A DNA stretch of 62,995 bases, the filler included, from Reclinomonas americana ATCC 50394 (Eukaryota), in assembly GCA_048213135.1 (NCBI GenBank). It is 13 parts of 13 records of this genome, joined end to end, with 100 filler letters (N's around TTAATTAATTAA, not from the genome) between each part and the next. Parts side by side here need not be neighbours in the genome. Positions count along the whole stretch, not along the records: positions 15,428 to 21,315 come from AFZH01021687.1; positions 21,416 to 25,600 come from AFZH01021688.1; 11 more parts are not named here. One strand, written 5' to 3'. Shown here in pieces: positions 15,328-60,921 of the stretch. The position numbers and the translations under genes were made by a program. Position 1 is the first letter of the stretch, and each line of letters begins with the position of its first letter. The notes beneath the pieces are model-generated. The model searched no databases. It had not been told where the DNA came from and saw nothing but the letters and a program-made list of their open reading frames with translations.

Positions 15328-15518
15328 NNNNNNNNNNNNNNNNNNNNNNNNNNNNNNNNNNNNNNNNNNNNTTAATTAATTAANNNNNNNNNNNNNNNNN
15401 NNNNNNNNNNNNNNNNNNNNNNNNNNNTTGGGCTTGATGAATTGGAGAGGTTGTTGGCTTCTTTCTCGAGTGCACGAGAACTAACACTGTTCGTTTTCGC
15501 GACGATCGTCGCCTGCAG

Positions 15519-16988
15519 GGCAACAAGCGGTGAGTCTGTTCTCATCGTGCGTGCGCACGCGTACTGCCGTCCACTCGCTCACTCGTCCGCGACGCAGGTG
15601 CAACATTGTCGACACCTGGTGGCAGACGGAGACGGGTGCCTGCATGCTGACGACTTTCCCGCACGCGACGCACATGCGCCCCGGCTACCCCGGTCTTCCC
15701 ATGTTCGGTGCGTGACGCGTCGCCCAGCAACCTCATTTGCAGTTGTGCTGTGGAGTCTGAGTTTCGTCTGCAGGCGTGCAACCGTTGTTGGTCGACGACG
15801 CCGGCCGGGAGGTGGACGGCAATCACCCTGGACAGGGCAAGCTGCTGCTCAAGGCCCCATGGCCCGGCATTGTTCGTGCTCTGCGTTTGACTGTGTTTTG
15901 TAGTAGCTCACTCGACTGTGGTGATGTAGATGCGCACCGTCTACGGCAACCAGAAGCGCTTCGAAGAGACGTACTTCCAGGAGCATCTGGGCTACTACAC
16001 CACCGGTGACGCCGCTGCGCGTGACAAGGACGGTTTCTACACCATCAAGGGACGCACCGACGACGTGCTGATTGTTAGGTGTGTGCTGCACGTCGTTTGT
16101 GTGGACACGACGGCTGCATGACTCATCTAGTTGTTTTTGCGTGTGTCCAGCGGCCACAATCTGGTTCGACGACTCGCGCACCGATGCACCAGCCTTACGA
16201 TTGAGACTCACATCTCCTCTGTTCACATGCAGGGTACGGCTGAGCTGGAGAGCGCATTCCTCACTCACCCGGTGCGTCGAATGACATCGGAAAACATTTT
16301 GTGATTGTAAGCGACTGACCTTCCCGCGCAGGCATGCATTGAGGCTGCCGTGGTCCCCGTGCCGCACCCCATCAAGGGACATGTGCGTCACTGTCTCCAG
16401 CATGCTGTGTGCGCACAGCCGACCCTCGTGACGCGTTTTGTTGTTGTTCTGTTTGCAGGGTTTGTATGTGTACATTGTGCCTCGTGACCCGAAATCCGTC
16501 GGCGAGCCACTGCGCAAGACCCTCAAGGAGCACATTCGCCACGAGATCGGAGCTTATATCCTTTGCTGTTCTCACTTCCTCCCATCTTGCGCTGTTCTCA
16601 CATTTTTTGTCGTCCTTGACTGTGTTCGTGCCTCACTCGCCGCCCCCGAGGACATTCAGTTCTGTGCCGCCCTGCCCAAGACCCGCTCTGGCAAGGTCAT
16701 GCGCCGCCTGCTGAAGAAGGTGGGCCGACGCAGTGTTTTGTCACGAAGTGTCGAAGACGGAGCACTCACAGGCGACGACTGCACAGTTTGCTCGTGACGA
16801 GTTTGACCATCTCGGCGATCTGTCCACGCTGCTCGGTGCGGGTTACACTTTCTCGCTCGCTTCCTCCCTGCCTCCCACTGATAAGTCTCACCGCGCATGC
16901 AGACCCGCCGGTGATTGATCAGCTCATTGCCGGTCGCAAGGCCCGCGTGGCCGAGGTCGCCGCCGCCAAGAGCGCCAAGAGCAAGTGA
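15519..16988 (+). CDS. ACS: acetyl-CoA synthetase (AMP-forming), C-terminal half; N-terminus lost in gap
   Basis: Motifs [85 protein letters not shown] and [14 protein letters not shown]. Stop TGA at 16986-16988. Confidence 0.95.
16556..16636 (+). other. U12-type (minor spliceosome) AT-AC intron in the ACS gene
   Basis: 5' end ATATCCTTT, branch site TCCTTGAC at 16613-16620, terminal AC at 16635-16636. Removal restores the conserved EIGAFAAPEDI. No GT-AG alternative found. Confidence 0.9.
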
Positions 16989-17252
16989 AGGAGAGCTCTG
17001 CGGTAAGTATGGTGCGGCGGCGATAACAAAATGAATGCAAAAGTCCGCGGCTTGGTGAACGAAGTCGTCGAAGTTGCTGTTTTTGGCAACAAGAGTGCTG
17101 CGACGGTTTAGTAACGCGAAAAGCGTGGGCATAGTCATCGTGGAAGCAGCACAGTGCTTACGTAAGCTTCATTATCCCGCACAACAACTTCGATCGTCCT
17201 GTCTTTGTTGTCTTGTTGTGTCGGGAGAGCTTGCCTCCTCTCTCTCTCTCCG

Positions 17253-20200
17253 ATGGGTCACGTCTTTGCACGCGACACACTTCCTCGCGGCGTCATTCGT
17301 CAGTTCGAAACATGGTGTGTCTTCTGTGTGTGTATGCATTTTTCCTACACACTCACTCGCACTCACAAATCCTCACTTTGCTGTGCTCTCTCTTGCTCTC
17401 TCGCATGTGACAGGGACACCAATGATCGCCGTCGGATGGTGGTGAGCACGCGGACATGGCACACACACATCTTGTCAGACGAACGCACACACTCTCTCTC
17501 TCTCAAACACACACACTGCTCACTCACTCGCCTTACATGCACACATATGCACACACACTGAGTAACAAAGAAAAGACATCTCTTTTTATTGTTGTCCGCC
17601 TCTCCCTCTCACGCATTGCATTCCAGGTGAAATCAGGCAACATTGTCGGCGAAGAGGTCTCTGCGATTGTCAATCCCGCTCACTCGACACTCTCCTTCAA
17701 AGGAGGTGCGCGACTCTGCCTTTCTCTCCCCTCTTTGCTCACTCACTCACTCACTTGCTTGAAACACAAAGGCGTGGCGCAATCGCTGCTCAAGAGCGGT
17801 GGTCGGGAAATCGAGGACGAGTGCAAGAACTATGTGCGCAGGAATGGCCCTCTACCGACTGGATGTGCCATGAGCACCAGTGCGGGCAGCGGTCGGCTGG
17901 CGTGCATGGCGATCATTCACACGGTGGGGCCGAACTGTCGCGATTCGGCAAAGGTGGACTGGGCGCGCGCCGACTCGGAGTTGTCGCAGTCGGTGATGAA
18001 CTGCCTGCAGATTGCCGACGAGCAGGTGCTGCGTAGCGTGGCCTTCCCGGCCATCTCCACGGGCATCTTTGGCTTTCCGGCCGACCGATGCGCATACATT
18101 ATGATCACGTCGGTGCTGCAGTTCTTCAATCAGCGGCCGAATGCCAATGTGACCGAGGTGCGCTTTGTGCTCTTCCAGGACGAGGTGGCGGAGACCTTTG
18201 CACAGGCCGTTGCGTGACACTGTTTTCCCCCACATTCTTTGCTGCAGTCCACTCCACGACATTGTTCTCAATGCATTTGTTCCGTGCAGTTTGACAGTCT
18301 CATGGAGGCCTACATCATGCCTCGGCCGCTGCCGGAGGTGCCGGCGACGCCAAGCACTGTTGCGGCAGCGGACATGCCGTCGGAACCGTCCGGATCGTCA
18401 GGGTCGTCACCGCCCTCTGGTGCAGCGGCAGCGGCAACACCAGCGGCAGCGGAGCAGCCGCGTCGCGGCGAACCTGCGGTCTCCCAACCGCCGCCATTGG
18501 CCCTCAGCGACAATCCGCGATTGGCACTCGATGCACAGCTCAACATGTGCCGCCAGTCTGAGCGCTCGCTGACAGAAACGATCGACAGTGTCAGTCGTCT
18601 CATTGACGACCGCCACTTGGTGGACGCCATCGAGGCCTGGGGCATTTTGCTGAAGGCTCAGCAGGCCATTGTTGCGTGCTCTCACCTGTGATTTTTCTGG
18701 CGTGTGCTGAAAAGCAGAGAATGACATGCGTGCAGAACGAGCGGCAGCAATCGGATGTGGCGCCCGAGCTGCGCCGGCTGCACGAGGTCGTGGATCGCCG
18801 CATTCGGCTGGCATTCGCGGCCGCCGGTGAGCTGCGCGCGCTCATCGAGCGTGACAAGGCCATCACTCCTGATGTGGCACGAGCTGCCGACCTGCGCACG
18901 GAGTCGTGCACGGCGGCTGGCGAGTCGATTGATCAGCTCATGGCGTTTTTGGATGCGCGGTGCTCTGCGGAGAACAGTGTGGTGGAGAGTCTGGAGCGCG
19001 TGGCTGCCAGCCTGCGTCGTGTCGGTGTCGCAGTCCCTGTCGACCTGAATGAGTTGCCGGCGCCGTCGCACGAACTCGGTTTGCTGTGTTTGTTGCCCGT
19101 TGTATCGCGTAACGGGTCAGCCTGCTTACGTGTTGCTTCGTCGCAGATCTGCCAAGTCTGTTCATGAGCGTCGAGCAGTGGCTGAGCACGCATGTCACGG
19201 AGCTGGCCACGGCCACGCACAACTGCAACTTTTACTTTGAGCATGGCACAGTCACGCAGTGGAGGGAGGCAGTGGCCGTGGAGCGCACACTGATTCAGCA
19301 GGTGTGTTTTCGAGGGAGAGGGACGAGAGTGTCCGCACACAAATGTCTCACCTCGTGCGTGCGCACACAGTGCATGGCATCGTGGCCGCTGAACCCGGAG
19401 TTGGCAGACCCGCTGCAGGTGCTCACGCACATGCGCCGAATGGCCAAGGACACGGTGCAGCTGCTGATCAACCGTCGTGCCAGCATGTCGGAGTTGGAGG
19501 GTAACCGACGAGTCTTTGATCGCGTCATTCGTGCCCGTCGGGAGGTGTCTTCGCTGGCCACACAGATAGAGGCAGCGCAGCGCAAGCTCAATTTGAGCCA
19601 GCTGGACATCGAGCAAAAGCCGCTCGATCGCCGCCGCATGGAGTTGCAGGGCGCGTCGGTTGGCGCACTCGACGACATCGACCAGCAGCTGGCCGAGGCG
19701 CGACGAAAGCACGATGAGGCGCGTTCCGAGTTCGAGCGACTCAATGCACAGTTGAAAGACTTCCAGGATCCCGAGTGGCTGCCTGATGTCCCGCTGCAGC
19801 CCGTCGGCAACACGGCCACGGTTGCGTGCCTATTTGAGGTGGCGGTGTACAGAAGGGGAAAAGTGGAACTTATACGCGATGTGTGTGTGTGCGCAGGGCT
19901 TGTGGATCTCGCAATATGGTGGCACACTGCCGCTGCCGCGTGCGCTGCAGAGCGATGCGCTGCATTTGGTGGGTCGCCGACGCGAGGACTACGATGCAAT
20001 CAAGAATTTGGCCAGTGCAAACTCTGTATTCAAGGCGCGCTACCGCCCCACCGAGCACGAGTGCGTCATCAAGCAGTTTGACGTCAGCCTCCCCGAGCTG
20101 CGCCGCGCCTTCCTCAAGGAGCTGTCTGTGCTGCGGAAAGTGCGCCACCCCAATGTCGGTGCGTGCAGCAGAAGAATGTTTGCGAGTTTCTCAGTGCGGA

Positions 20201-20380
20201 GAATACTCACTCTTTTGACGTGACAGTGCCACTGAATGGCTTCTTTGAGGCGCCGAGCACCTGCATGATGCTGGAGTTGCCGTATGTCGGCAGCCAAAAT
20301 CTGTGGCAGTGGCTGGACTCTGAGCGCCCGAGTGACGACGTGATTCGCGCCGTGTTTCAACAGTTGGTGCAGGTGAGTCC

Positions 20381-20414
<34 letters not shown>

Positions 20415-21252
20415 CTGAGAGCGAGAAAGAAAGAGAAAGCGAGAGAAAGACTGAGAGAGAATGAGAGACTGATTATGACTGAGAGACACCTGCGCCATGT
20501 CGAGTTTTCGCAGAGTGTCTTGCTTAAATTGTGTCACATTAACTGCAGGGCTTGTTGGCGTTGCACCAAAACGACGTTGTACACACGGACATGAAGCTGG
20601 AGAACGTCGTCATGCGTGATGACGGTCGTCCCGTGATTGTCGACTTTGATGTGGCCATCAGCAAGGACATGTTGACGAAGCGAACGGCGATTCGGCAGAG
20701 TTGCGTGACATGTGCAATTCGGATGACCATTCGTTTCCACTCATGTGGAGAGCACACACACAGCGGTGCGTGGTACGGACGGCTATCTGGCGCCTGAGCT
20801 GCTCGGCGGTGATGCCGCGCGCTACATTGACAAGCCCGCTCGCGACATGTGGTGCATCGGTGTCATGCTGATCCGCGCCTACATGTTCAACAACGAGGTG
20901 TCGCCGATGATCGACTTCAGTCGACCCGTGGCCAACATGACGCAGTTTGCCAGCCGTCTGGAGAATGTGCCGTATCTCATGGCGCTGCTGTCGGCACTGG
21001 TGGGTGGATGGGAGGAAGTGGGGAAGGGGCGGAGGGGATATTGGGGGAAAGAGGGAGAGAGGAGGAGAGGGAGCAGGAAGGGGGGAGGGGGACGGGGGAA
21101 GGGAGAGTGGGAGTATGGGGGAGAGAGAGAAAGAGGTGGAAGAGAGAGGGGGAAGAACGATAAAGAAGGGAGAGAGAGGAGAGACATGATGTAATGCTCA
21201 GTGAGAAAGTGGGAGAATTTGGGAGTGGCGGTAAGGACAGTAAGAGTTACAA

Positions 21253-21310
<58 letters not shown>

Positions 21311-23969
21311 AGAGANNNNNNNNNNNNNNNNNNNNNNNNNNNNNNNNNNNNNNNNNNNNTTAATTAATTAANNNNNNNNNNNNNNNNNNNNNNNNNNNNN
21401 NNNNNNNNNNNNNNNCAGGTTGTTCGGGAGAATATGAGAGAGTGAGAGCGCGAGGAGAATGAGGAGGAACAGATAATCGAAGAGAGAGAAAGCGAGGAGG
21501 GGAGATAAGGAAGGGAGAGAGAGGGAGAGACGTAGATGTGAGAGAAGAGTGAGGGGGAGAATTTGGAGCGTGGCGGAGAGACATAAAATAGATGCAAGAG
21601 AGATAGAGAGGTGGTTGTTTGGGAAGAGAGCGATCATGCCTGTGTCTAAATGGTGATCTTGTCGCTGCTCCAGTTGACACAAGATCCGAATGCCCGTATT
21701 TCTGCGGTGGACGCTTCTTGCCATCCATACTTTGTGGCATCGCGCGTGTTGATGATGCCATCGGCGCCGTTGCTGGAGCGGACGGAGCGAGCCTACATCA
21801 ATTTCCGCCAGAGCATCTCCAACGCCATTCAGCGCTGCGTCAATCGACGATATATGGTTGCGTTTCTTTGTTTCTCGCCTATTCGCATGCTCGCCTGCTG
21901 GGCGACTGACGCAGTGTGTAGCGTCTTCCGATTCGCCGTGATCACATGGTGGAGGACGTGGTAGAGTTGATGCTGGCACTGGCGCCTGCTTCGTGGCTCG
22001 AAAAATCCTATGTCGAGTATGCCGGCGAGCAGGGCATTGATGTCGGCGGTCTGACGTCGGACATGTACACAAAGGTGAGAGGTTTTCTCTTTCGTGTGTG
22101 TGTGGGCGGTGTTTTGACTGTCGCTCACCTCCCTCGGATCAGTTCTTCTATGGCATGTGTGCGGAGGGCAGCGTGTTTGAGAAGGAGGAGCAGAGCCACT
22201 TTTACATGCCTGTGGATCTGAACAGCATCACAAACGCGGCCAAGCGACAGGCGGCCGAGAGGACGCTCAGGGGCGTCGGTCGTGTGTTTGCACGGTGCAT
22301 TGTGGACGAGCGCAAGATTCCGTATCCGCTCATTGCGCCAGTTTTCTGGACACTGCTGTGCGGTGCGGTGGCGTGGGATTGTAGTGTGCTTACTCTGCAG
22401 TGGCAATGACCCCATTGTTTAATCACGCAGGTGGCGAGTCTACGCAAATCATTTTGCGCACGAGCAGCTCCACCAGCGAGTGCAACTTGCTGCTGCGTGC
22501 GCTGGAGCCCATCGACCCTGGACTTGTGCGAGTTTTCCGGCAGGCACTGACTGACGACTCGGTGGACACGTGGATGATGACGTTTGAGGATGTGGATCCC
22601 GAGTTTTTGCCGTCGGATATGGGTGCGGAAGGGGGGCGGAGAAGGGGAAGGGGGGAGGGGTGAAGGGTGGGAAGGGAGAGCGAATGCGAAATGTTTGTGT
22701 GTGCGTTTGGATTGTTGGGAGTTTGTTCGCTGGATGGTTTATCGATTGTCTGTTTGTCTCTCTGCCTCTCGTCGCGTCTCCCTTTCTGTCTTTTGACGTT
22801 TTTGATTGCTGGTCTGCTTGCAGTGTGTTGTGTGCTTGTCCCCTCTCTCTCTGGCTGTCTGCCTACCGTCGCACTTGCATGCCTTCCTGCCTGGCGGTGT
22901 GTCTGTCTGTTTTTCTGGTTGCGTTTGCACACATTCTTTCTCTCTCTCTCTCTCTCTGACACTGTCCCCATCTTTCTGTCTGCCTGATTTTGTTCGACTG
23001 TCCCGCTTGTTCTGTTGCGTGCTTGTTTTTTGACTGTCTCTGGCTATCTGTTTCTCTCTTTGTCTTCTCACTGTTCGGTCGATTGCATTTTGTTGTGTAC
23101 TCCTCTTTTCTCTCTCCTCTCTCTCTTTCAGCCTGGCTGTCTGTTTGGTTTCCTTCTGTTTGAGTACTCGTTTTGCTTGTCTCTCTGACGCTTTCTTCTC
23201 TCTCTCTCTCTCCATCTAGTTGAACGTTTGCCTGCTTGTTTTTCTACTCTCTCTTTTTCTGGCGCGTGTCTGTTGCTTACTTGATCGCCAACAGAGGCCA
23301 CCACTCTTGTGCGAGCCTCTAACGCCTACACATACGTGTGCAACCGATGTCGCTCGCGATTGGCCACCAACGGCCGCCGTGCTGCCATTGATTTTATCCG
23401 TGAGGGCATGCGAGATCTGCTCTGCGTGCCGGTGGAAGTTGCATTTCACAACCCCTCTGTTGCTGTGTATCGAACTCCAACTTGTGCTCATTACTGGCAC
23501 TTCAGGTATTCGAGGCCATGACGCCATCGTCGTGGATGCGAGTGCTGGTGGCCGACGAGTCGATGGATGTCAGCGACATTCTCAGCATTATCCAGTATCA
23601 CGGGCGTGGTGGGGCGATCAAGGAGATTTTGGAGGACGTGCTGCGGTCATTCTCGGAGCCGGAGCTGCGCGCGTTCTTGCAATTCGTCACTGGCCAGCCG
23701 GCGCTGTGTGCCGAGTTGAACGTCAAGGCGGTGGATGTGCCACGCGACGCACTGCCAGTGTTGCGTCTTTTCGTTGTTTGTCATTTGTTACTACTATAGC
23801 CGTTGTTCACCACTGCACGTGTAGGGCGCACACGTGCTTCCTCCAGCTGGATGTGAGCCGTCGTCTTGGAGCCGTGGCATCCGAGGCCGAGCGCAGAGAA
23901 GCAGTAGACCTTTTGCGCTCCAAGCTGTTGTACGCCATGGAGAACTGCGACGGCTTTGCTCTCGAATAA
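17253..23969 (+). CDS. macrodomain + coiled-coil + protein kinase + HECT E3 ubiquitin ligase fusion (spans gap 21316-21415 inside an intron)
   Basis: Macro at about 17626-18208 (AIVNPAH, KGGVAQSL, IIHTVGP, VAFPAISTGIFGFP). Kinase at about 19990-21733 (VIKQ, KELSVLRKVRHPNV, HTDMKLEN, DFD, GTDGYLAPE, LLSAL|LTQDPNARISAVDASCHPYF). HECT at about 21920-23969 (YAGEQGIDVGGL, FLQFVTG, LPVAHTCF, LRSKLLYAMENCDGFALE*). Confidence 0.85.
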
Positions 23970-24132
23970 GTTATTGCTGCAATAAAGCGAGGTGAGATCG
24001 CGAATGCACTCTAGCGAGGTGTGGTTTCTTGTTTCATTGCGAGGCATGGACAGGGAGAACATATATATATATATAGGTAAGGAGGCGAGGTGCGGTGAAG
24101 CTTTGAGAGCAAGAGAATAATGAGGTGTCGCA

Positions 24133-25493
24133 TCACAACTTGGCCGTGAGACCACCCGCCGAAGCGGCGGCGATTTCGGTGACCGCACGCACGCCGGTCT
24201 CCATCGCAGTGTGAATGGTCGACGACACACTGGTGTGCGTGGCCTCACCGGCAAAGAACAAGCGCCCGTGCACCGGCTGCGCGTGACGTGATGAGGAGAG
24301 AAACGCAGTGCAGGCAACGTGCAGTGCACAAGCAAGTACCTCGGCGAGTGCCAGCTTCTTGCCGTAAGCGCCGACCGAGGGATGGCTGTACGACCCGCGA
24401 ATGAACGGGTGGTCCTTCCATGAGTACACAGCGGCGTCTCCAAACGAGCTGGTGGCCGGCTTCGGGTTCTGCTCGGTGCCAAACATGGTGTCGAGGAACT
24501 CGAGGAACTCGCGTGTGCCCTTCTCCTTGCCGAGCCGTCGGAGGCGATCGTCGGCATCGTCACCAATGACAAACGCCACCACAGTGTACTCCTGCTCGCC
24601 AGGTCTGCAGCGTGCCGGGTTAGGGGTCTTACGAGGAACACCGAGGCGACAGGATCACTCACCGCTTGCCAGGGAATGGACCATTCATCCACACTTGCGA
24701 AAACTGCGGATTCTCGGTGATCACCAGATCAATAGTCTGTTCACAAGGGTCAACGGTGAGGCCAGATGGGGACGAACGAAGATAGGTGACACTCACTGAC
24801 CTCGGGCCAGAACCGCTTGTTGAATCGGCAGATAATCTGCAGGGGAGCAGAGGTTAGAAAAATCGACATGTGGGGAAAGGACACTGACACACACGCACCT
24901 TTGCGCCACCCTCCATGCCAATGCTCTTGGCGGCATCAATCTTGGCCGGCGGCAGTGGCGGATCGAAAGTAATGTCGCCCGCGGCGAGAATCGTCACCGG
25001 CACGGTGATAATCACATGGTCACACCGCACCACTTCGCCGTTCTGGTTGGTGATCTCCACACCCGAGTCCTCGCGGTAGCGGATGTTCTTGGCCTGCCAG
25101 TTGAGGCGGACATCGACGCCCTCGGTGAGCGCATCCAGCACCTGCTTGGTGGAGCGCCAGAAGCGGAAATTGTCGCGTCCGTACTTCCACTGGCGATCCT
25201 CACGAGCGCCCTCCTGCGCACAGGGAGTGAGGCATCAGAGTGGGAACGTGCATGGAAATAGAGAAAACTGCGCCCACCTTGACACCGAGCCGCGTGCACG
25301 TGGTGCCATAGGTGCGGCAGTAGAGCGACTCGGCCACGCGGAACAACTCCTCGTGCACGCCCTTCTCCCGCAGATACTCGTAGAAGGAGACATCGTCGGG
25401 CATGTCCTCCTCCTCGTCGCCAATCATGTCGATCACCGCAAACATGTGCTCCATGTGCGGACTGGTCTCGCCCTCGAACACCATTTGCCCGCC
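24133..25493 (-). CDS. flavin-dependent amine oxidase (polyamine oxidase/LSD1-like fold) with PTS1 -AKL; N-terminus lost in gap
   Basis: DVRLNWQA, CDHVIITVPVTIL, ITFDPPLPPAKIDAA, WKDHPFIRGSYS, LFFAGEAT...TIHTAMETGVRA; ends GGLTAKL*. Confidence 0.9.
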
Positions 25494-25700
25494 TGTGGGT
25501 TGCCGGAAAGGAGAAGGGGTTGAGTAAGGGAGTAGTGAGAGAGACGAGAAGTGAGAGAAGACAGTCAGCAGCAAGCGCTGGCATGGAGATTGAGCAGAAA
25601 NNNNNNNNNNNNNNNNNNNNNNNNNNNNNNNNNNNNNNNNNNNNTTAATTAATTAANNNNNNNNNNNNNNNNNNNNNNNNNNNNNNNNNNNNNNNNNNNN

Positions 25701-50704: not shown

Positions 50705-53648
50705 ATGGCGGGCGCGGGATGGGATGTGGGCGCCGTGTACGCCAACGACGTGGGCCTTGTCTCCGCCAGCCGCCTGAGCGGTGACGGGTCGCAGCTCGCG
50801 GGCGGAGCAGGTGGCGCCGGCTTGCTGGGCTTTGGCGGTGGAGGCGACGACGACTCGATTGTGGCCGCCGGTCTCGCCACCAATGACGTGGCGCGGCGGC
50901 GCTTCTTTGAGTTCCTGCGCCACTTTAGCATCTCCAAGGCCGGTGCGGGCGGCGCGGCGGCGGCAATGGGAGGTGCGGTCGATGTCGACGTGGCGGCGGG
51001 AGGTGGCGTCGAGTACCCGTATCGAGTGGCGCTGCGTGAGGCCGTGCATGCGCCGTCGTCGTCGTTGCGCTTTATCGTGGTCGACTTGGCCGACTTGCGA
51101 TCCTACGATGCCGATGTTGAGTGTGCACATCACAAAAACACGCATTGTCGTGCTTGCTCTCTCTGTCTCACGCATGTTGTGATGCGCAGCTGGCGGGTGC
51201 GTTGATGGAGCGACCAGCGCAGCTGATGCAAGCGGTTCGTGTTTGCTTGCGTGTGTGTGACATGCCATCTCCGACTGTGACTGGAACCTCCTTGTGCAGT
51301 TTGAGAGTGCGGCGCACGAGGCGATTCAGTTTACGGATGTGCGGCCGGCGGCGGGAGCGGTGGCGGAGATGGAGTTGGTGCCGGCGTTGTCGGTGCCGGT
51401 GCAGGTGCTGCTGCGCGGGCAGGCGTCGGAGGTCGGCGTGCGTGTGCTCTCGTCGGTGCGCATCTCGCAGCTGGTCACCCTGCGTGGCATTGTCATTAGT
51501 GCCAGCAAGACGAGGTGCGGCGAGGCGAGAGATAGTCGGGTGGTTTTTCCGAACGGGCGATGATTGATGATTGATTGTGTGTGCAGGTGCAAGGCTACTC
51601 GGCTGGGCATTCGGTGCGCGAGCTGCGGGCATGTGGCGTACATTTCGGTGACGCCGGGTATGGGTTCGGCGACGCTGCCGCGCAAGTGCATGAGCGAGGC
51701 GCAGCCGGATGGATCGCGGCCGTGCCCGGTCGATCCGTACATTATCGATCCGCAGCGATCGGCGTTCCTCAACCAGCAGGTGCTGAAGGTGCAGGAGCTG
51801 CCGGAGAATGTGCCGACGGGTGAGATGCCACGGCATGTGCTGTGCGTGGCCGATCGTACGCTCTGCGATCGTGTTGCTCCAGGTGCGTTTGCAGAATCAA
51901 TCACTGTTTCCCTCTTCGCCCCCTGTTGACGTTGATCGGTGGACGCAGGCACACGTGTTCGCATGGTGGGCATTCACTCAATCTACCAAAAGTTTGGTAG
52001 CGGCGGTCGCACGGGCGTGGGTGCGGCCGGCATTCGGCATCCGTACTTGCGTCTTCTCGGTCTGGAGTTGGCGTCGGGCGACGGTGCCGAACTGGTGCGC
52101 CCATGCCTCACATTTTTTCCTTTCCTTCGTGTTGCTGTCCGTCTCACCACCTCCTTTGTTTTTCTCGGTGCAGTTCAATCCGGAGGAGGAGGGGCGCTAC
52201 GCAGAAATCTCGCGCATGCCTGACTTGCAGGATATGATTGCGCGCAGCATCGATCCGGCCATTTTCGGTCTGGAGGACATCAAGAAGGCCATTGCGTGCC
52301 TGCTGTTTGGTGGCTCCTCCAAGCGTCTCCCCGACGGCACTCGTCTCCGCGGTGACATTAATGTCCTGCTGCTCGGCGATCCGTCGGCTGGCAAGTCGCA
52401 GCTGCTCAAGTACACGCAGCGCATTGCGCCAGTGGGTGTGTACACCAGTGGCAAGGGCAGCAGTGCTGCCGGTCTGACGGCCTCGGTCATTCGAGACAGC
52501 AGTGTTAGTACAACTCACCTTGCCTTTGTTTGTTCGCTTGCCTGCGTGCTGAATGTGTGTGTGCGCGCACAGGGCGAATTCTATCTGGAAGGCGGTTCGA
52601 TGGTGCTGGCCGACGGCGGTGTGGCCTGCATCGACGAGTTCGACAAGATGCGTGAGCAGGACCGTGTGGCCATTCACGAGGCCATGGAGCAGCAGACGAT
52701 TTCGATTGCCAAGGCCGGCATCACCACCATGCTCAACTCGCGAACCGCCGTCCTCGCCGCCGCCAATCCCTCGTTCGGCAGGTACGACGACACGCAGGCG
52801 GCTACGGATCAAATCGACTTCCAGACCACCATCTTGTCGCGTTTCGACATGATTTTCATTGTGCGTGATGTGCGCGACGAAGCCAAGGATCGCCACATTG
52901 CCACGCACGTGTTGCACATTCACCAGCAGGTGTCGTCGTCGAACATGGGTCCGGCGCCGGAAATCGACTCGGAGGAGCTGCGACGCTACATTGCCTATGC
53001 CCGACAGTTGAGTCTCGCTCGTGTTGCCTTGCTTTTTGTTTGTTTGGAAAATGTCTCTGATGAATGTCGTTGGTGTCGACGTGCAGCAAGTGCGCACCAC
53101 GCTTGGCGGAGGAGGCCGCAGCAACGCTGCGCAACGAGTACGTGGCCATGCGACAGGACGTGCGCGATGCTGCTGCAGGCAGCGGCACGGCCGCCATTCC
53201 CATTACCGTGCGCCAGCTGGAGGCCATTGTGCGTATCTCCGAATCGCTGGCCAAGATGACGCTGTCACCGGTGGCCACTGCCGAGCACGTCGCCGAAGTT
53301 GCGTTTTTTTGCTTGGCAGCTTTGTCTTCCGCCCACCCTCCTGACTGTCCCTGTTTGGTGGCGCAGGCCATTCGGCTGTTCCGCTCGGCGACACTCGACG
53401 CCGCCAAGTCGGGCATGATTGACGTGATGGCGCTGACCGATGACATGATGTCGGAGGTGCAGCAGGTGGAGGAGCGCATCCGCAGTCGCCTCGCTGTCAA
53501 CGCCTCCATGCCGGAGACAGCACTCATCGAGTTCCTGTCCTCCATGGGCTTCAACAAGGCCTCGATTCGTCGCGCCATCTTCATCATGATGAGTCGCGAG
53601 GAACTCGAGTACCGCTCACAACGACGCAAGATCTTCCGGAAACGATAA
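50705..53648 (+). CDS. MCM5: DNA replication licensing factor MCM5
   Basis: GWDVGAVY N-terminus; Zn finger CASC...LPRKC...[85 protein letters not shown]. Confidence 0.97.
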
Positions 53649-53780: not shown

Positions 53781-56700
53781 TTATTGGCGACGAGCAGGCG
53801 GTGCGCGTCCTGCACTGGCGCCACTCGCAGTCGCCGCACCCGTAGTTCCGGTCGAGTTCGCGGCACCACCAGACGCCCCCCCAGTCGATGCACGCGACTT
53901 GGCGGAAGAAGAGGAAGCACCGGTAGTCGCTGTTGTCGCCGCAGACGAGGGAGCAGACGATGGCGGTGGTGGCGGCGGTACAGCTGCAGCTGTTGACGGC
54001 TGCGGAGGTGGTGGTGGTGAAACGGCCGACGCCGCGGCAGGCGCAGGAGGAGCGGTAGTGGCAGCCGAGGCAGCAGTTGGCAGTGCCGGCAAGGGGCCAC
54101 TGCTCTCCACCGTCTCTGGCAACGGACTCAACCGCGCCTCATCCTCGTCGTGCCACACCTCCTCCAACTGTGCGTCCTCCTCATTGGCAATCGCCACCGC
54201 CGCCGCGATCTCCCGGTCGGGAACGACAGGGACAGAGGGTGGCGCGAGTGCGGCGGCCTTGCGAGCGCGCACCAGCAGGCGCTGCAGCGGGCTCTGTGGT
54301 CCACTTGCACGCCGCGACCGCGGCGACGGCGATACCGAGTGAGCGACTGGCGAACTCCACGGCGAGCCGGGGAACGGCACCACGTGCTCAAGTGTCGGCA
54401 ATGACGCGAGATCGTCGTCCTCGGCCGACTGCGAAAGGTGGGGATAGTCGATCAGTACACCATTTTTACGTGAAATAGACTCTCTCCGCGACTCACCAGC
54501 TGCGGCGGTGCGAGCGCCGAGAGTCGACTCGCTGCGACACGAGCCGGTGCGGGGCCGGGGAGACCGCTGGTCGCCGCCGGTGCAACCACCACTGTTGTTT
54601 CCGCCGGACGTGCAGGAACCGGCGTGTCGGCAAACTCCTCGCGCGTCTCAAACACAAACGAGAGGCCGCAGGTCTGAGGGGGGAAAGAGAGTGAGTTCAT
54701 CGACGACAGCAAGATAAAAGCAGCGACACTGATAATGCACGTTACCTGGATGAACGAGTTGTGCCACAGCGCCACTCGCACCATACGCAGCACAGGCTGA
54801 CCGTTGAGCAGCACGGGCGCCTTGCCAAACACGATCAGCGCAAATCGCACGAGCGGCTCCTCGGGAAGACCCTCTGCACAGTGCTCCACATAGAAATGCT
54901 CACGCGACATGCGCCGAAACAGCAGCAGCGCCTCCTTTTCCGTGTCCGTCTGCACCACATCCACACGCGACTCGTGCTGCGCAAGGGTCACTACATTCTC
55001 AGTACCTTGGGGACCACAGAGCAGTGCTCATGGCGTGCGTGTACTGTACGTACCGGTGAGGGCGATGAACTCGACAGCGAGCTCATCGAGGCGTCCGAGA
55101 AGCGTCGCGAGTGGCGCATAGCTGCTGCGGCCCGTGTCTCGGCGGCTGCCGGTGCAATTGTTCCCACACGTCGCTCCTCCATGTGCGGTCGCGAAATGTA
55201 CCTGACGACACATGGGAGTAAGCCACAGAGAAAGAAAAAGGTGACCAACACTGGCGGGTCACACCGATTGCTCAGCTCCGGTGTCACATTGTGATACCGC
55301 GACGGGAACGACACTGTCGCACCGTTCTCCATCCCGCGACCAAACAGACACTGTGATGCCAAGCGCAGACGGTAAGCAAGAGTGGGGTAGTGAGAGGCAG
55401 CAAGCGCCCACATAGATGACGCAACGACAGGCGCATCAACAAGAAAGGCACACGCGTATCCGCGCAGCACACCCAGCACGCGACCCTGCTTCGTGGCCTC
55501 TTCTTCGCTCAGGGGTGGTGCAGCTACCGACGCCACTCCGTCGACCTCCATGCTGCCGCTGGGAGGCGACGTCCATCGCACACTGCGAATCAGCGCACTT
55601 GAACGCACGTCGAGGGTGAGGTTGTAACCGAGCGACACGTCGGTGGTGGGCTCGTGTATCGGAAAGAGCCGATCGCACATGAGCTCCGTTTCAATCTCCA
55701 TCGCCAACCCGAATGCTGTACGACACAACAGAGCACAGACACCGGTCCTCGTCAGCACACAAGTGGAGACAAACGCGAAGAAGGAAACCTTGAGGACGCA
55801 CCTTTCTTGTCGACATGCAAGCCAGGCTTCCAGTCGAGTGTCTCCGACCGCGCAGGCCATTCACTGCAGGCGAAAACAACACACGTCAATACACACGGCC
55901 GAAGCACACAGTGCATTATAGAAACAAGCACAACTATAGGAGGCACGCTATCTTTATGCACTACTCAGACCAGATCTTGGTTATTGCAACGCTCACAGAG
56001 TTCACGGAGCAGGTTTTGGATCATCACCGAATGCACAAAGAAAAGCACACCACTCTTCTTTCCCAATCCTCTCTCTCCCTCACATCGTAAACACCGACGC
56101 ACCTCTTTTCGTTTCGCCGAGCCACCAGCCACAGTTTTTCCAACTCAAACGACGGTGCCGTGTACAACGACTGCGCACGACGGCCCACAAATCGCCGTCG
56201 TGCCTTGGTGTGCACTGCGTGAGGGAAGGGGAACAGTCAGTGGTCAGGGAACCCAAGCGGATGCACTGGTGGATCATGCGTACCGGTAGAGTCGCACACA
56301 GTGGGCGACGACTGCGATCGACTGGCATCGGCACCGACTGACTGCGACAGCTGCGACACGCTGACACGCACACACTCCGGGACGACACGGTACTTGCGCG
56401 ACGACTCGCCACCCGAGTCGAACAACTCAGATGCACTCGGTGCCGGGCGTCGCTTGCGCAGCGGTTCCCCGTGTGTCACCGACGCCTGCGCACGGTTTCA
56501 ATAACAACAGCAACGCAAGGGGGGGAAAACAACCGTTTCCACCTCCGCCTCACCATCGACGACTCGTACGGCAAACGCGTCACCTCCTCCGCCATCTCCA
56601 GCAAATCCGACGCGGTCCTCTTGTGCGGCTGGTCACGTAGATCCACAGTATCATACGGCAGCACGTAGTGCGAGTAGTAGTACGGTTCTCCCACCGTCGG

Positions 56701-58013
56701 CACCGCCACAGCATATGGTCTCCTTCTGATGGTCGGCATTGCCACTGGCTCAGAAGCAACAGCAGCAGCAGAGGGCGAGGTCACTGCCGAGCTGCTAGAC
56801 CGTGTTGGTCTCTTCTGCATCCTCCGCTGCTGCTGCTGCTGCTGCCTCCGCCTTCTCCTCCTTTCCTCATCATCATCGTCCTCATCATCCAACAACAAGT
56901 CATCGTCCTGATCCAAATCATCATCCTCGTCCGACTCCCCCAACTCAAAGTCTTCATCATCGTCATCATCACTCAGCGCCAACATGGCCGCCGCATGCAC
57001 CGCCCTTCGCGCCGCTGCACGACCACCAGCACCACCACCACCCATTGTCCCTCCCGACCTCCGCCCACTGCCATCAGCATTCATCCCACGGTGCGGAGAC
57101 GCTCGATGATGCGACGCGTATGGTTTCGATCGCTCACGGTACACCATCGGAGCTGCCGCACTGGCCAACGACGACGCTCCGGTCCCATAAGGAGTCGCCG
57201 ACGAGGCCAGTGCCGACAACGTCGCCGCCGAAGTCGATGCCGACGACGGTGGTCCACCCGTCCCAAACAGCGGCCACACCAACGGTTGCCCACTGGGCGT
57301 CACAGCCGGCGCACCACGCTTCGTCCTCTCCTGCAAGCGCAACCGCAAGCGATAGAAATGTGCATCGATTCCACGAACAGTCCGCGACGGATGAAACACC
57401 TCTGGAAAGTGCGCCAACAGTTCCTTTGCATTTAACCGCCCCGTCAAGTTGAACTGCGTGCACGGAGGCGAGTGCGCAAGCGAAAGAGTGAGCAAGTGAG
57501 CGCACGACGTGATGTGCGATGTCACCCCACAAACGCAACTGCATCCCACAGAAAACTCTCCTCCTCATCGGTCCACACGGTGCGCCCGCCAACCACACGC
57601 GGACCATCCGACATACCCATCGCCAACGCTGTGTGTTGCTGCTGCTGTTGTTGTTGTTGTTGTTGTTGCTGACCGGGGGAAGTCACGGGCGAAACCAAAG
57701 ACGACGGACTGTCGGGCACCACAATCGCCGCTGGTGGCGGCGACGACACAGGCACAACTGGAGGAGCTGGCGGCGGTGGTGGTGGAGGTAATACAACAGC
57801 GGGAGGCGGAGTCGGAACGGGCTGTGGCGGAGGTGGTGATGTGGGCATGGACATCATCGCCACCTGCGCCGCCTCTTGTTGTTCTTGTTGTTGTTGTTGT
57901 TGAATCTGCTGCAAGTGCTGCTGCTGCTGTTGCCGCATCTGAAGCAGCTGCTGCTGTTGCACGCGCGCCAGCAGCGCCAGCATCGCCGCGGTGGCCGCGT
58001 CCGGCGCTGACAT
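53781..58013 (-). CDS. MCRS1: MCRS1/MSP58-like protein (poly-Q/Pro N-terminus, C-terminal FHA domain)
   Basis: WTDEEESFL...ELLAHFPEVFHPSRTVRGIDAHFYRLR resembles the MCRS1 middle region. LGVLRGYACAFLVDAPV|CLFGRG...MSREHF...FALIVFGKAPVLLNGQPV...LWHNSFIQ|TCGLSFVFE is an MCRS1-type FHA. The exon chain between these blocks is not fully resolved. Confidence 0.65.
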
Positions 58014-58434: not shown

Positions 58435-58598
58435 GTTGCGTGTATAGACAAGCCAGATTATCTTTCAAACGCGTGTTGCTGATCGTCGGCAAGCAGTGNN
58501 NNNNNNNNNNNNNNNNNNNNNNNNNNNNNNNNNNNNNNNNNNTTAATTAATTAANNNNNNNNNNNNNNNNNNNNNNNNNNNNNNNNNNNNNNNNNNNN

Positions 58599-59552
58599 CA
58601 TCGCCCGCCACAAAGTACGACGAGATCGCCGGCGAGGCGCCGTTCGTCGGCAGCAAGTTGCCGTCCGAGGTCTTCATCTTGCCATCGATAAAGGTGCGCA
58701 GCGAGTTGGCCGTGGTCGCGTCGGAGCCGTACACTTGCGAGGCGTCGATCCACGCAGTGATGTGGTTGATCTGCTCACGGCGACCGTTGATCGACTGGTA
58801 GTCGTCGCGCGACTGCGGAATGGCGCCGCCAAACAGCGGGTCCGCCGGATCCAGCACGGCAATCGACGAGTCCTGCGCGGGACTGGCGCTGGCCGTCTGC
58901 GTAATATCGTGGTCCAGGAACTGGCCCCACTGCCACACCATGCCCGACACGTTGTTGGCGGCCTCGAACTCATTTGGCTCGCCGTCGGCGTCGACGCCCT
59001 GCTGCAGCACCAGGTTGGAGATATCGCGGGCATTGGGTCCCGAGCGCAGGCTATCGTCGGCGCCGTAGTTGGCGAGGTTGGCGTAGCGAATGTACGTCTG
59101 GCCGGCGGAGCCGAGCGGGCACTTCTTTTTGTTGGGTGCCGACGCATCCGGAACGCATCGCTGCTGCAGGTTGTTGTTGGCGCCGTCAATCGAGCGCCAT
59201 TCGGGTTGCGCCGGCTGTTGCGGAGGAGGTGGCTGCTGACCACCGCCGTTCTGGGGAGGCTGCTGCTGGCCACCACCATTGTTCTGACCACCAGTGTTCT
59301 GCGGGGGCTGCTGCTGGCCACCATTGTTCTGGCCACCATTGTTCTGGCCACCAGTGTTCTGGGGAGGCTGCTGTTGTTGTTGGCCACCACCGTTCTGTGA
59401 CGGTGGAGGAGGAGCGGCTTGTGCACTGTGTGATAACATGAGGTGAGTGGGAGTGTTGTGGGGAGAGAGGGAGAGAGGGAGGAAAAGACTCACAAGACGG
59501 CCACAATGACCAAGAGTGCCAGCACGGCAAGCACACGAGGAGAGAACATCAT
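58599..59552 (-). CDS. secreted heme peroxidase (peroxidase-cyclooxygenase superfamily) with Q/N/G/P-rich N-terminal repeats; C-terminus lost in gap
   Basis: Signal peptide MMFSPRVLAVLALLVIVAVF|AQA, then RSIDGANNN, PNARDISN, WGQFLDHDI, REQINHITAWIDASQVYGS, LRTFIDGKM and FVAGD. Confidence 0.9.
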
Positions 59553-60200
59553 GATGATTGTTGTTGTTGTCGTTGTTGTTGTGTGGAAGGAGGAGGTTGT
59601 CAGGTCTCACAAGTGAGGTGCGATATAGGGTGTGGTGGTTGCAAAGGAGGCCATCGTGGCGGCTTTATGGTGCGTGCGAGTCGGGTGGCCGACAGATGTC
59701 GCGGAGGTAGACTGCAAATTGCACTCCAAATTGCGCGTGTCTGATGTGGGCGGCTTCCGGGCGCCAGCTTGCAGGGTCTTGAGTGAAAGAAAAGAGAGGC
59801 ATGATAATGGAGGTGTGAATGGGGAAATGGTGACCATCAGCTGTCGCGAGACGAAGTGGAAGCAATCAACGTTCTTGAATATCGAATCCGGACATCAAGT
59901 ACGACAACCAATCTCCCTTGCCGCGATGAAGGCAAACCTCATGCAGCGGCAGTTTGGCAGGCAGGTGCTGTAGCCACAACTAGCACAGGGAAGCACATAG
60001 TAAAACAATCTCGAAAAGCACGCCAGCGTCGACACAACGCTGTTGTGGTCAATTGCAATCGGAATAAATGCAGCGAGAAAACTGCAGGTCAAAGGTGGCT
60101 ATGCGATGAGAGTTCGAGAAACAAGAACGCACCGATGACGAAGAGAGCCAAGGCCCGCACTAAAGATCCGCACGACTCGGAACGAGCCTCGTTGTAAACG

Positions 60201-60828: not shown

Positions 60829-60911
60829 CCGAAGGTAGCTCAGCTGGAAGAGCATGGGACTGTAAGTGTTCTGATATCCCAGGGTCGAGGGTTCAATTCC
60901 CTCCCTTCGGA
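60829..60911 (+). tRNA. trnY: tRNA-Tyr(GTA) with a 10-nt intron (60866-60875)
   Basis: Acceptor stem CCGAAGG/CCTTCGG with discriminator A; D-stem GCTC/GAGC; anticodon stem TGGGA/TCCCA with GTA at 60862-60864; intron at canonical 37/38; T-arm GAGGG-TTCAATT-CCCTC; C1:G72. Confidence 0.95.
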
Positions 60912-60921
60912 CCTTCGACAT

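Follow-up and report, generated by a model that had tools for sequence, protein, structure and literature searches.

The window analysed here is a 62,995-nucleotide (nt) stretch of DNA from Reclinomonas americana ATCC 50394 (assembly GCA_048213135.1). This eukaryotic DNA has a GC content of ~56%, and its genes carry many introns, most of them very short, with little space between one gene and the next. On its + strand, between 17253 and 23969, Pfam matches to a macrodomain, a protein kinase and a HECT domain lie in collinear order. An original prediction made for this DNA had placed the three domains in this order, on this strand and across this span, and both Pfam and alignments to structures in the Protein Data Bank (PDB) bear it out. 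On balance we read the locus as one gene of 18 exons (Table 1) coding for a protein of ~1,340 amino acids (aa), in which a macrodomain resembling macrodomain 1 (MD1) of PARP14 would be followed by a linker, an atypical Ser/Thr-type kinase and a HECT domain. The union of kinase and HECT domain in one gene and one transcript is strongly supported by the predicted exons, and the macrodomain probably belongs to that protein as well, though this is not certain.

Fifteen pieces of the + strand, each about the size of an exon and lying within 17774-23966, were scanned with Pfam one by one rather than as a spliced protein. The piece 17774-18208 matches Macro PF01661 at 86.8 bits (E = 1.4e-24; cut-off 22), which places it in the family, and in the PDB the macro exon finds PARP14 MD1 (E = 2.9e-31), PARP9 MD1 (1.7e-16) and macroH2A1.1 (~1e-15). 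Exon 2 supplies the N-terminal ligand loop; in an alignment with 153 relatives it falls on the consensus gDi / vDviVNaaN / hgGG, while a PDB search with this 26-aa exon alone gave no match. Its donor GTGCGC at 17706 is the sole GT donor that fits the frame (acceptor 17771), the other fit being a GC donor. Hydrolytic macrodomains are marked by the Asp of GD[IL], the Asn of NxxN, a Gly pair and a second loop of the form G-[IVL]-[FY]-G; of these, the first Asp is an adenine contact and the Asn has a part in hydrolysis. Our macrodomain has the Gly pair (G51, shared with 132 of the 153 relatives, and G52, with 130) and the second loop (PAISTGIFG). Four ligand-site positions differ from the majority of relatives. 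Asp occupies the site of our Asn30 in 115 of the 153 (Asn in 15) and that of Ser37 in 137; the site of His44 holds Asn in 119 relatives and His in three, and that of Phe49 holds His in 104. The MD1 of PARP14 and that of PARP9 (PDB 3vfq/3q6z and 9qyd) are the closest solved macrodomains and have the PAISxGxFGFP loop in common with ours; in the part of PMC10499325 drawn on here, both are described as ADP-ribosyl hydrolases, and the pocket-blocking G832E change abolishes activity. Unlike ours, these domains reside in PARP proteins, whereas no PARP domain is present here, and in our protein the Asn is replaced by His, two Asp residues by Asn and Ser, and the His by Phe. Because the usual catalytic Asn is replaced by His, the domain is more likely to be a reader than an efficient hydrolase: these residues make ADP-ribose binding plausible without assuring it, and leave hydrolysis doubtful.

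The kinase domain is spread over five exons, three of which match Pkinase PF00069 in profile order: 19900-20157 covers profile positions 14-60 (14.9 bits), 20549-20701 positions 110-146 (29.3 bits) and 20754-21002 positions 155-193 (24.6 bits). Among PDB structures, phosphorylase kinase and LIMK1 match the N-lobe exon over the beta3 Lys and the alphaC Glu, STK17B and greatwall match the activation-segment exon, and all three matches of exon 12 are to the C-terminal ends of kinases (GSK3, CDK-like), if weakly (E 0.17-0.49). Active kinases are recognised by a Gly-rich loop, the beta3 Lys, the alphaC Glu, a D-x-K-x-x-N loop, the Asp of DFG, APE and the subdomain XI Arg. Present in our model are K705, E721, D796, K798 and N801 (in the loop HTDMKLEN), D814, APE at 842-844 and R919 of subdomain XI.

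For the HECT domain, matches to PF00632 come from 22143-22370 (profile 14-71, 18.1 bits), from 23506-23757 in exon 17 (profile 177-244, 27.0 bits, above the cut-off of 23.9) and from 23826-23966 (profile 271-305, 15.9 bits). HECT ligases carry a catalytic Cys ~35 residues from the C-terminus and a Phe at position -4. Both are found here in addition to the above-cut-off match, which identifies the domain as HECT: the Cys codon of HTCF lies at 23835-23837 (C1297) and the Phe at -4 is F1337, followed by the stop codon TAA at 23967-23969. In the PDB the C-lobe exon finds HUWE1 and TRIP12; the domain is divergent, single exons scoring only ~15 bits against solved HECT structures. Its connection to the kinase is short (~50 residues, model aa 928-973): exon 12 carries kinase subdomain XI and then reads on toward the HECT domain. 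The frame of exon 13 opens right after a stop at 21919-21921 and contains no ATG ahead of the HECT start; a separate HECT gene would therefore miss its first strand.

Between macrodomain and kinase lies a linker of ~480 aa rather than the ~400 aa of Pro-rich sequence and coiled coil that had been proposed. Its exons 4-7 have a G+C content at third codon positions (GC3) of 0.69-0.80, no different from that of the domain exons, and for this reason we take them as coding in the chosen frames. Only ~90 aa are rich in Pro, Ala and Ser (16 P, 17 A and 13 S of 93), a stretch that we take to be disordered, and the Leu/Ala/Arg/Glu-rich region (~350 aa) is probably helical. None of the linker exons matches a Pfam family at its cut-off, and the coiled coil corresponds to weak sub-threshold matches to coiled-coil families. 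The intron at 18671-18717 (donor GTTGCGTG) is just 47 nt long, and the two frames that it joins overlap by 85 nt (18607-18691); it could instead be a sequencing frameshift in the draft assembly.

The gene model was built by listing every GT/GC-AG pair that preserves the known frames. It comprises 4,023 nt of coding sequence (CDS; 1,340 codons, GC3 0.74) with no internal stop, and all of its introns are GT-AG. Ten of the 17 introns measure 64-69 nt, and the others 47, 76, 81, 176, 299, 672 and 674 nt, the last figure counting a contig spacer; this short-intron style matches that of the neighbouring acetyl-CoA synthetase gene (58-76 nt). The hexamer GTTGCG stands at six of the 17 predicted donors, one of which, at 23760 in the HECT domain, is the sole GT donor compatible with the frame at its junction. 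Across the whole window GTTGCG occurs 50 times on the + strand and 30 times on the - strand, against ~22 expected per strand, and GTAAGT is rare (four and two occurrences, respectively). Nine copies of GTTGCG lie on the + strand of 17000-24100, and six of these fall inside the 913 nt (13%) in which donors were sought (P = 2.9e-4). An 'open frame upstream' statistic for donor motifs gave no discrimination in this GC-rich sequence. At the tentative exon 1 (GC3 only 0.52), several donors fit the frame, and GTGTGT at 17328 was chosen; with this donor, residues 20-25 fall on the strand ahead of GD[IL] in an alignment with the relative P0142 (model 20-197, 130.4 bits). The 5' end of the gene model remains uncertain. 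As a donor consensus, GTTGCG is unusual.

An HMMER search with the macro exon returned 8,525 matches at E <= 0.001, and no orthologue of this exon was found in the library, the best 150 of these matches all being at most 43% identical. Pfam architectures were obtained for 32 of the best 150, comprising PARP14/PARP9-like proteins, Macro with DEAD helicase, Macro with reverse transcriptase (RT), Macro with DUF5587 and two cases of Macro with RING/Deltex-C; none of the 32 contains Pkinase or HECT. For the other 118, phmmer with the exons of the present gene gave no match at E <= 1, a search of low sensitivity, and a kinase-motif regular expression, likewise of low sensitivity, found none (0/154) while passing its positive control. 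A word-index search in 'longer' mode yielded four matches for the macro exon, none with kinase or HECT, no match for HECT exon 17 and none for kinase exon 10 even at E <= 10. Metagenome scans with the macro exon and HECT exon 17 gave no relative, and the ESM Atlas returned only short HECT fragment clusters for exon 17. Some of the closest relatives are stand-alone macro proteins (P0135, 253 aa; P0038, 305 aa; P0142, 429 aa). Two library proteins, P0061 (1,386 aa) and P0136 (3,381 aa), combine several macrodomains with a Deltex C-terminal domain (DTC), P0136 having a RING finger as well, and are direct single-chain fusions of macrodomain and E3 ubiquitin ligase of the DTX type.

How the protein compares with described systems depends on which domains are considered. 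In P0061, P0136 and the PARP9-DTX3L pair, a macrodomain is joined to or partnered with a ubiquitin E3, as in our model, but the E3 is RING/DTC rather than HECT and a kinase is lacking; no RING or Deltex C-terminal domain was found in the 15 exon pieces scanned, which sets the present protein apart from the PARP9/DTX3L and Macro-RING-DTC types. Kinase and HECT domains in one chain have been described in other protists. Leishmania major LmjF35.4000 combines a eukaryotic protein kinase (ePK) domain, TPR motifs and HECT in one protein (PMC1266030), and 'GL-Bikonta' HECTs of Naegleria gruberi and Ectocarpus siliculosus carry kinase domains that are called unusual and of unknown function (Grau-Bove et al. 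2013; PMC3673628); membership of that family is defined by a clade of the HECT-domain tree. In the portions of these two reports drawn on here, the kinase is termed unique or unusual, like that of our protein, and no macrodomain is reported; 'Macro' is absent from the main text of PMC3673628, the supplement lying outside the search. The likeness lies in domain content and in how the kinase is described, and the TPR motifs of LmjF35.4000 (as given in that portion of its report) have no counterpart in the 15 pieces of our protein in Pfam.

HUWE1 is a ligase targeted to poly(ADP-ribose) (PAR) that combines a WWE domain with HECT. The original prediction gave an incomplete account in assigning ADP-ribose-directed ubiquitylation of animals to RING ligases, since TRIP12 binds PAR via its WWE domain and ubiquitylates PARP1 via its HECT domain, according to the part of PMC7408484 consulted. 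As far as that account goes, TRIP12 unites an ADP-ribose reader with a catalytic HECT in one chain and follows the same reader-to-target logic that we propose, a resemblance of function only. By comparison with TRIP12, the reader in our protein is a macrodomain and not WWE, a kinase is inserted, and the HECT match is weak (~15 bits, also with HUWE1); no WWE domain was detected at E <= 0.1 in the 15 exon pieces, so our protein does not join the TRIP12 type. Full-text literature searches, judged from titles and the beginnings of abstracts, surfaced no paper describing macrodomain, kinase and HECT together. The three-domain set turned up in none of the searches made here, and its kinase-HECT half is already on record in the cited portions of PMC1266030 and PMC3673628. 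The combination is probably new, bringing together a protist kinase-HECT theme and an ADP-ribose-reader E3 theme, each already known.

Several points weigh against reading the locus as one gene for an enzyme that responds to ADP-ribose, and they define the alternatives. The 18-exon model is a prediction from genomic sequence; many donors were chosen by hand, only some junctions being unique under the frame and GT-AG rule, and the GTTGCG count is partly circular in that this hexamer was preferred among two to four candidates at several junctions. The searches run found no orthologue or related locus, so that conservation does not stand behind the architecture, a failure that says little because the lineage is absent from the library searched. 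Kinase exons 8-11 lie on one contig, and kinase exon 12 and the HECT exons on another, and the spacer between the two might join contigs that are not neighbours or that derive from two paralogues, which would put kinase and HECT in different genes. Spacers of this fixed kind chain the whole window, and not all of the joins are reliable: at 2 of them at least (15328 and 25601) a gene leaves the contig end without continuation on the next contig. The acetyl-CoA synthetase gene opens mid-protein at 15428, and its first ~400 residues (the 5' half) were not found anywhere in the window; the N-terminal part of the flavin amine oxidase that binds flavin adenine dinucleotide was not seen on the contig beyond 25601. 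At the join in question, however, the left contig stops in an intron just after kinase subdomain X, and subdomain XI resumes on the right contig, on the same strand and after a matching acceptor, with zero residues missing; the earlier reading of a C-lobe running seamlessly over a gap (LLSAL/LTQDPNARISA) is therefore upheld, the gap being the contig spacer. The left contig ends in (GA)n, which fits an intron that is purine-rich throughout (T+C 0.19), and exon 12 leads into a HECT start that has no ATG of its own. The seamless join on one strand within a purine-rich intron leads us to discount chance adjacency; we favour true adjacency of the two contigs, and consider a misjoin highly improbable. 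The place of the macrodomain in the protein depends on a single predicted intron, intron 3, whose 81 nt separate macro and linker in one shared reading frame. Six nt into this intron the macro frame meets an in-frame TGA (18215-18217), two codons past the end of the domain, and a same-frame ATG at 18302 sits 12 nt past the acceptor, 84 nt on from the TGA. This is the pattern expected of two tandem genes in a compact genome, where the spacers flanking the gene are just 264 and 163 nt, and it raises the alternative that a macro protein of ~199 aa precedes a linker-kinase-HECT gene, the fusion being an artefact. That stand-alone macro proteins of 250-430 aa occur among the closest relatives, that the kinase-HECT proteins of the literature come without a macrodomain in the portions of PMC1266030 and PMC3673628 cited above, and that intron 3 exceeds the modal intron size of 64-69 nt agree with this alternative. 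An 84-nt gap, on the other hand, would undercut both flanking spacers and would have to accommodate a 3' end, a promoter and a 5' untranslated region. The segment also looks like an intron: it opens with the 9-mer GTTGCGTGA, which on the + strand of the whole window occurs only here at 18209 and at 20700 (~0.29 expected per strand), the latter being the predicted donor inside the kinase domain; it closes with a pyrimidine-rich tract and GTGCAG; and its in-frame GC3 is 0.41, a non-coding level, compared with 0.74 for the CDS. The enrichment of GTTGCG at donors persists when the 18209 junction is set aside (five of eight, P = 1.3e-3). Scored against a profile of the 153 related macrodomains extended by their downstream residues, splicing gives 197.3 bits, a stop at the TGA 194.2 and an alternative acceptor 193.7; the gain of 3.1 bits for splicing over stopping is small. 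From these predicted features we consider splicing of the macro exon to the linker likely, and two separate genes unlikely. The single polypeptide of the original prediction thus stands firmly for kinase and HECT, whereas for the macrodomain it is the more likely arrangement, short of proof, hanging on one predicted intron with an in-frame TGA. Use of the TGA as a sense codon or by readthrough was rejected in view of the non-coding GC3 of the 81 nt and of the acetyl-CoA synthetase frame, which itself ends in TGA; the alternative acceptor at 18247 was rejected for the shortness of the resulting intron (39 nt) and its lower profile score.

If there is one gene, its macrodomain might still be non-binding and its kinase a pseudokinase, leaving a HECT ligase with inert scaffolding domains. 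With four usually conserved ligand-site positions changed, ADP-ribose binding is not assured, and the suggestion of an ADP-ribose sensor is weakened by Asn30, Ser37, His44 and Phe49. The further suggestion, of a part in defence or stress signalling, is neither supported nor contradicted by the present results. Against this, the PAISTGIFG loop and the GG pair are retained, and the 15 relatives noted above likewise have Asn at the first of these positions. The kinase had been called complete; its Lys, Glu, Asp, Asn, second Asp and APE are indeed present, but its Gly-loop reads LASANS, with no Gly, and DFG has become DFD (D814-F-D816). Each kinase piece, scanned as a separate exon, falls under the 31.7-bit cut-off of PF00069. 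In view of the Gly-loop and DFD, the domain may be a weak kinase or a pseudokinase, as would accord with the unusual kinase domains, of unknown function, in the cited part of the GL-Bikonta report. It nonetheless retains the Lys, the Glu, the D-x-K-x-x-N loop, the metal-binding Asp, APE and the subdomain XI Arg. We regard inert macro and kinase domains as a real possibility, though a doubtful one.

Returning to the reading of one gene with working domains, we postulate that the macrodomain would tether the enzyme to an ADP-ribosyl mark (or one of a related nucleotide sugar), that the helical linker region might allow self-association, that the kinase could act in cis (by autophosphorylation or by gating of the HECT domain) or prime the bound substrate, and that the HECT Cys would receive ubiquitin from an E2 and transfer it to the docked substrate. 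This scheme is drawn from domain identities and would have to be tempered by the atypical active-site residues of macrodomain and kinase. By analogy, the protein would work much like TRIP12 and other HECT ligases directed to PAR, except that a macro reader replaces WWE and a kinase is built in. In its strongest form the protein would be a single-chain integrator, whose macrodomain reads or trims mono-ADP-ribose and thereby switches on or positions kinase and HECT on the same target, a proposal that we consider distinctly unlikely. If true, ADP-ribosylation would be converted directly into phosphorylation and ubiquitylation of one target, and the protein would be the first macrodomain-directed HECT ligase, a lineage-independent counterpart of PARP9/DTX3L and TRIP12 logic. 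Crosstalk between ADP-ribosylation and ubiquitylation is understood from animal systems, namely RNF146, DTX3L/PARP9 and TRIP12; the same coupling would then have arisen independently with other parts, and would offer a compact model for the gating of a HECT ligase by a reader domain. Should the macro exon belong to a separate gene, the locus would hold one more poorly understood protist kinase-HECT protein, of modest interest.

Table 1. Predicted features of the macro-kinase-HECT gene, contig spacers and other genes in the window
Feature	Position	Strand	Description
Exon 1 (tentative)	17253-17327	+	Start ATG and first beta-strand of macrodomain, aa 1-25
Exon 2	17627-17705	+	Macrodomain N-terminal ligand loop GNI...NPAH...KGG
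Exon 3	17772-18208	+	Main macrodomain body
Predicted intron 3	18209-18289	+	81 nt, in frame; donor GTTGCGTGA, acceptor GTGCAG preceded by pyrimidine-rich tract
Exons 4-7	18290-18670, 18718-19078, 19147-19301, 19371-19820	+	Linker, aa 198-646; Pro/Ala/Ser-rich, then Leu/Ala/Arg/Glu-rich
Exons 8-12	19897-20158, 20227-20372, 20549-20699, 20764-20999, 21674-21856	+	Protein kinase domain
Contig spacer within the gene	21316-21415	.	Inside intron 11 (21000-21673)
Exons 13-18	21922-22074, 22143-22362, 22431-22622, 23295-23437, 23506-23759, 23825-23969	+	HECT domain
Contig-junction spacers (n = 12)			Identical, N44 + TTAATTAATTAA + N44, 100 nt each
Spacers 1-6	3339-3438, 9866-9965, 15328-15427, 21316-21415, 25601-25700, 28279-28378		
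Spacers 7-12	34612-34711, 37694-37793, 42078-42177, 46733-46832, 49083-49182, 58499-58598		
BEACH domain gene	7727-8029	+	
Acetyl-CoA synthetase-like gene, 3' part	15485-16988	+	WWQTETG motif at 15620, AMP-binding_C match, PKTRSGK motif; stop 16986-16988
Flavin amine oxidase gene	24136-25598	-	Pfam Amino_oxidase, E 1.7e-14 and 5.2e-19; converges on HECT gene
CAP_N gene	35637-36128	+	
Ras/Rab-type GTPase gene	44436-44870	+	
Ankyrin-repeat gene	45802-46494	-	
MCM5-like gene	51564-53645	+	MCM_OB, MCM P-loop (E 7e-94), MCM_lid, MCM5_C; single open frame of 490 aa
YL1 gene	56479-57564	-	
Animal-type haem peroxidase gene	58600-59664	-	
tRNA-Leu(TAA)	60829-60913	+	

The window as a whole is a chain of contigs of ~2.4-9.3 kb each. 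Pfam on open frames (>= 80 aa or >= 95 aa) found no PARP or ubiquitin-system gene near the macro-kinase-HECT gene, and the rest of the window holds housekeeping-type genes. Immediately upstream, the acetyl-CoA synthetase gene uses the donors GTGCGT, GTTCGT/GTTCGA and GTGTGT; downstream, the 163-nt spacer runs from the stop of the amine oxidase gene to that of the HECT gene. The contig that starts at 37794 opens with ACCGTAACCGTAACC (ACCGTA repeats). Fine splitting into exons is not universal among the genes here, as illustrated by the 490-aa open frame of the MCM5-like gene.

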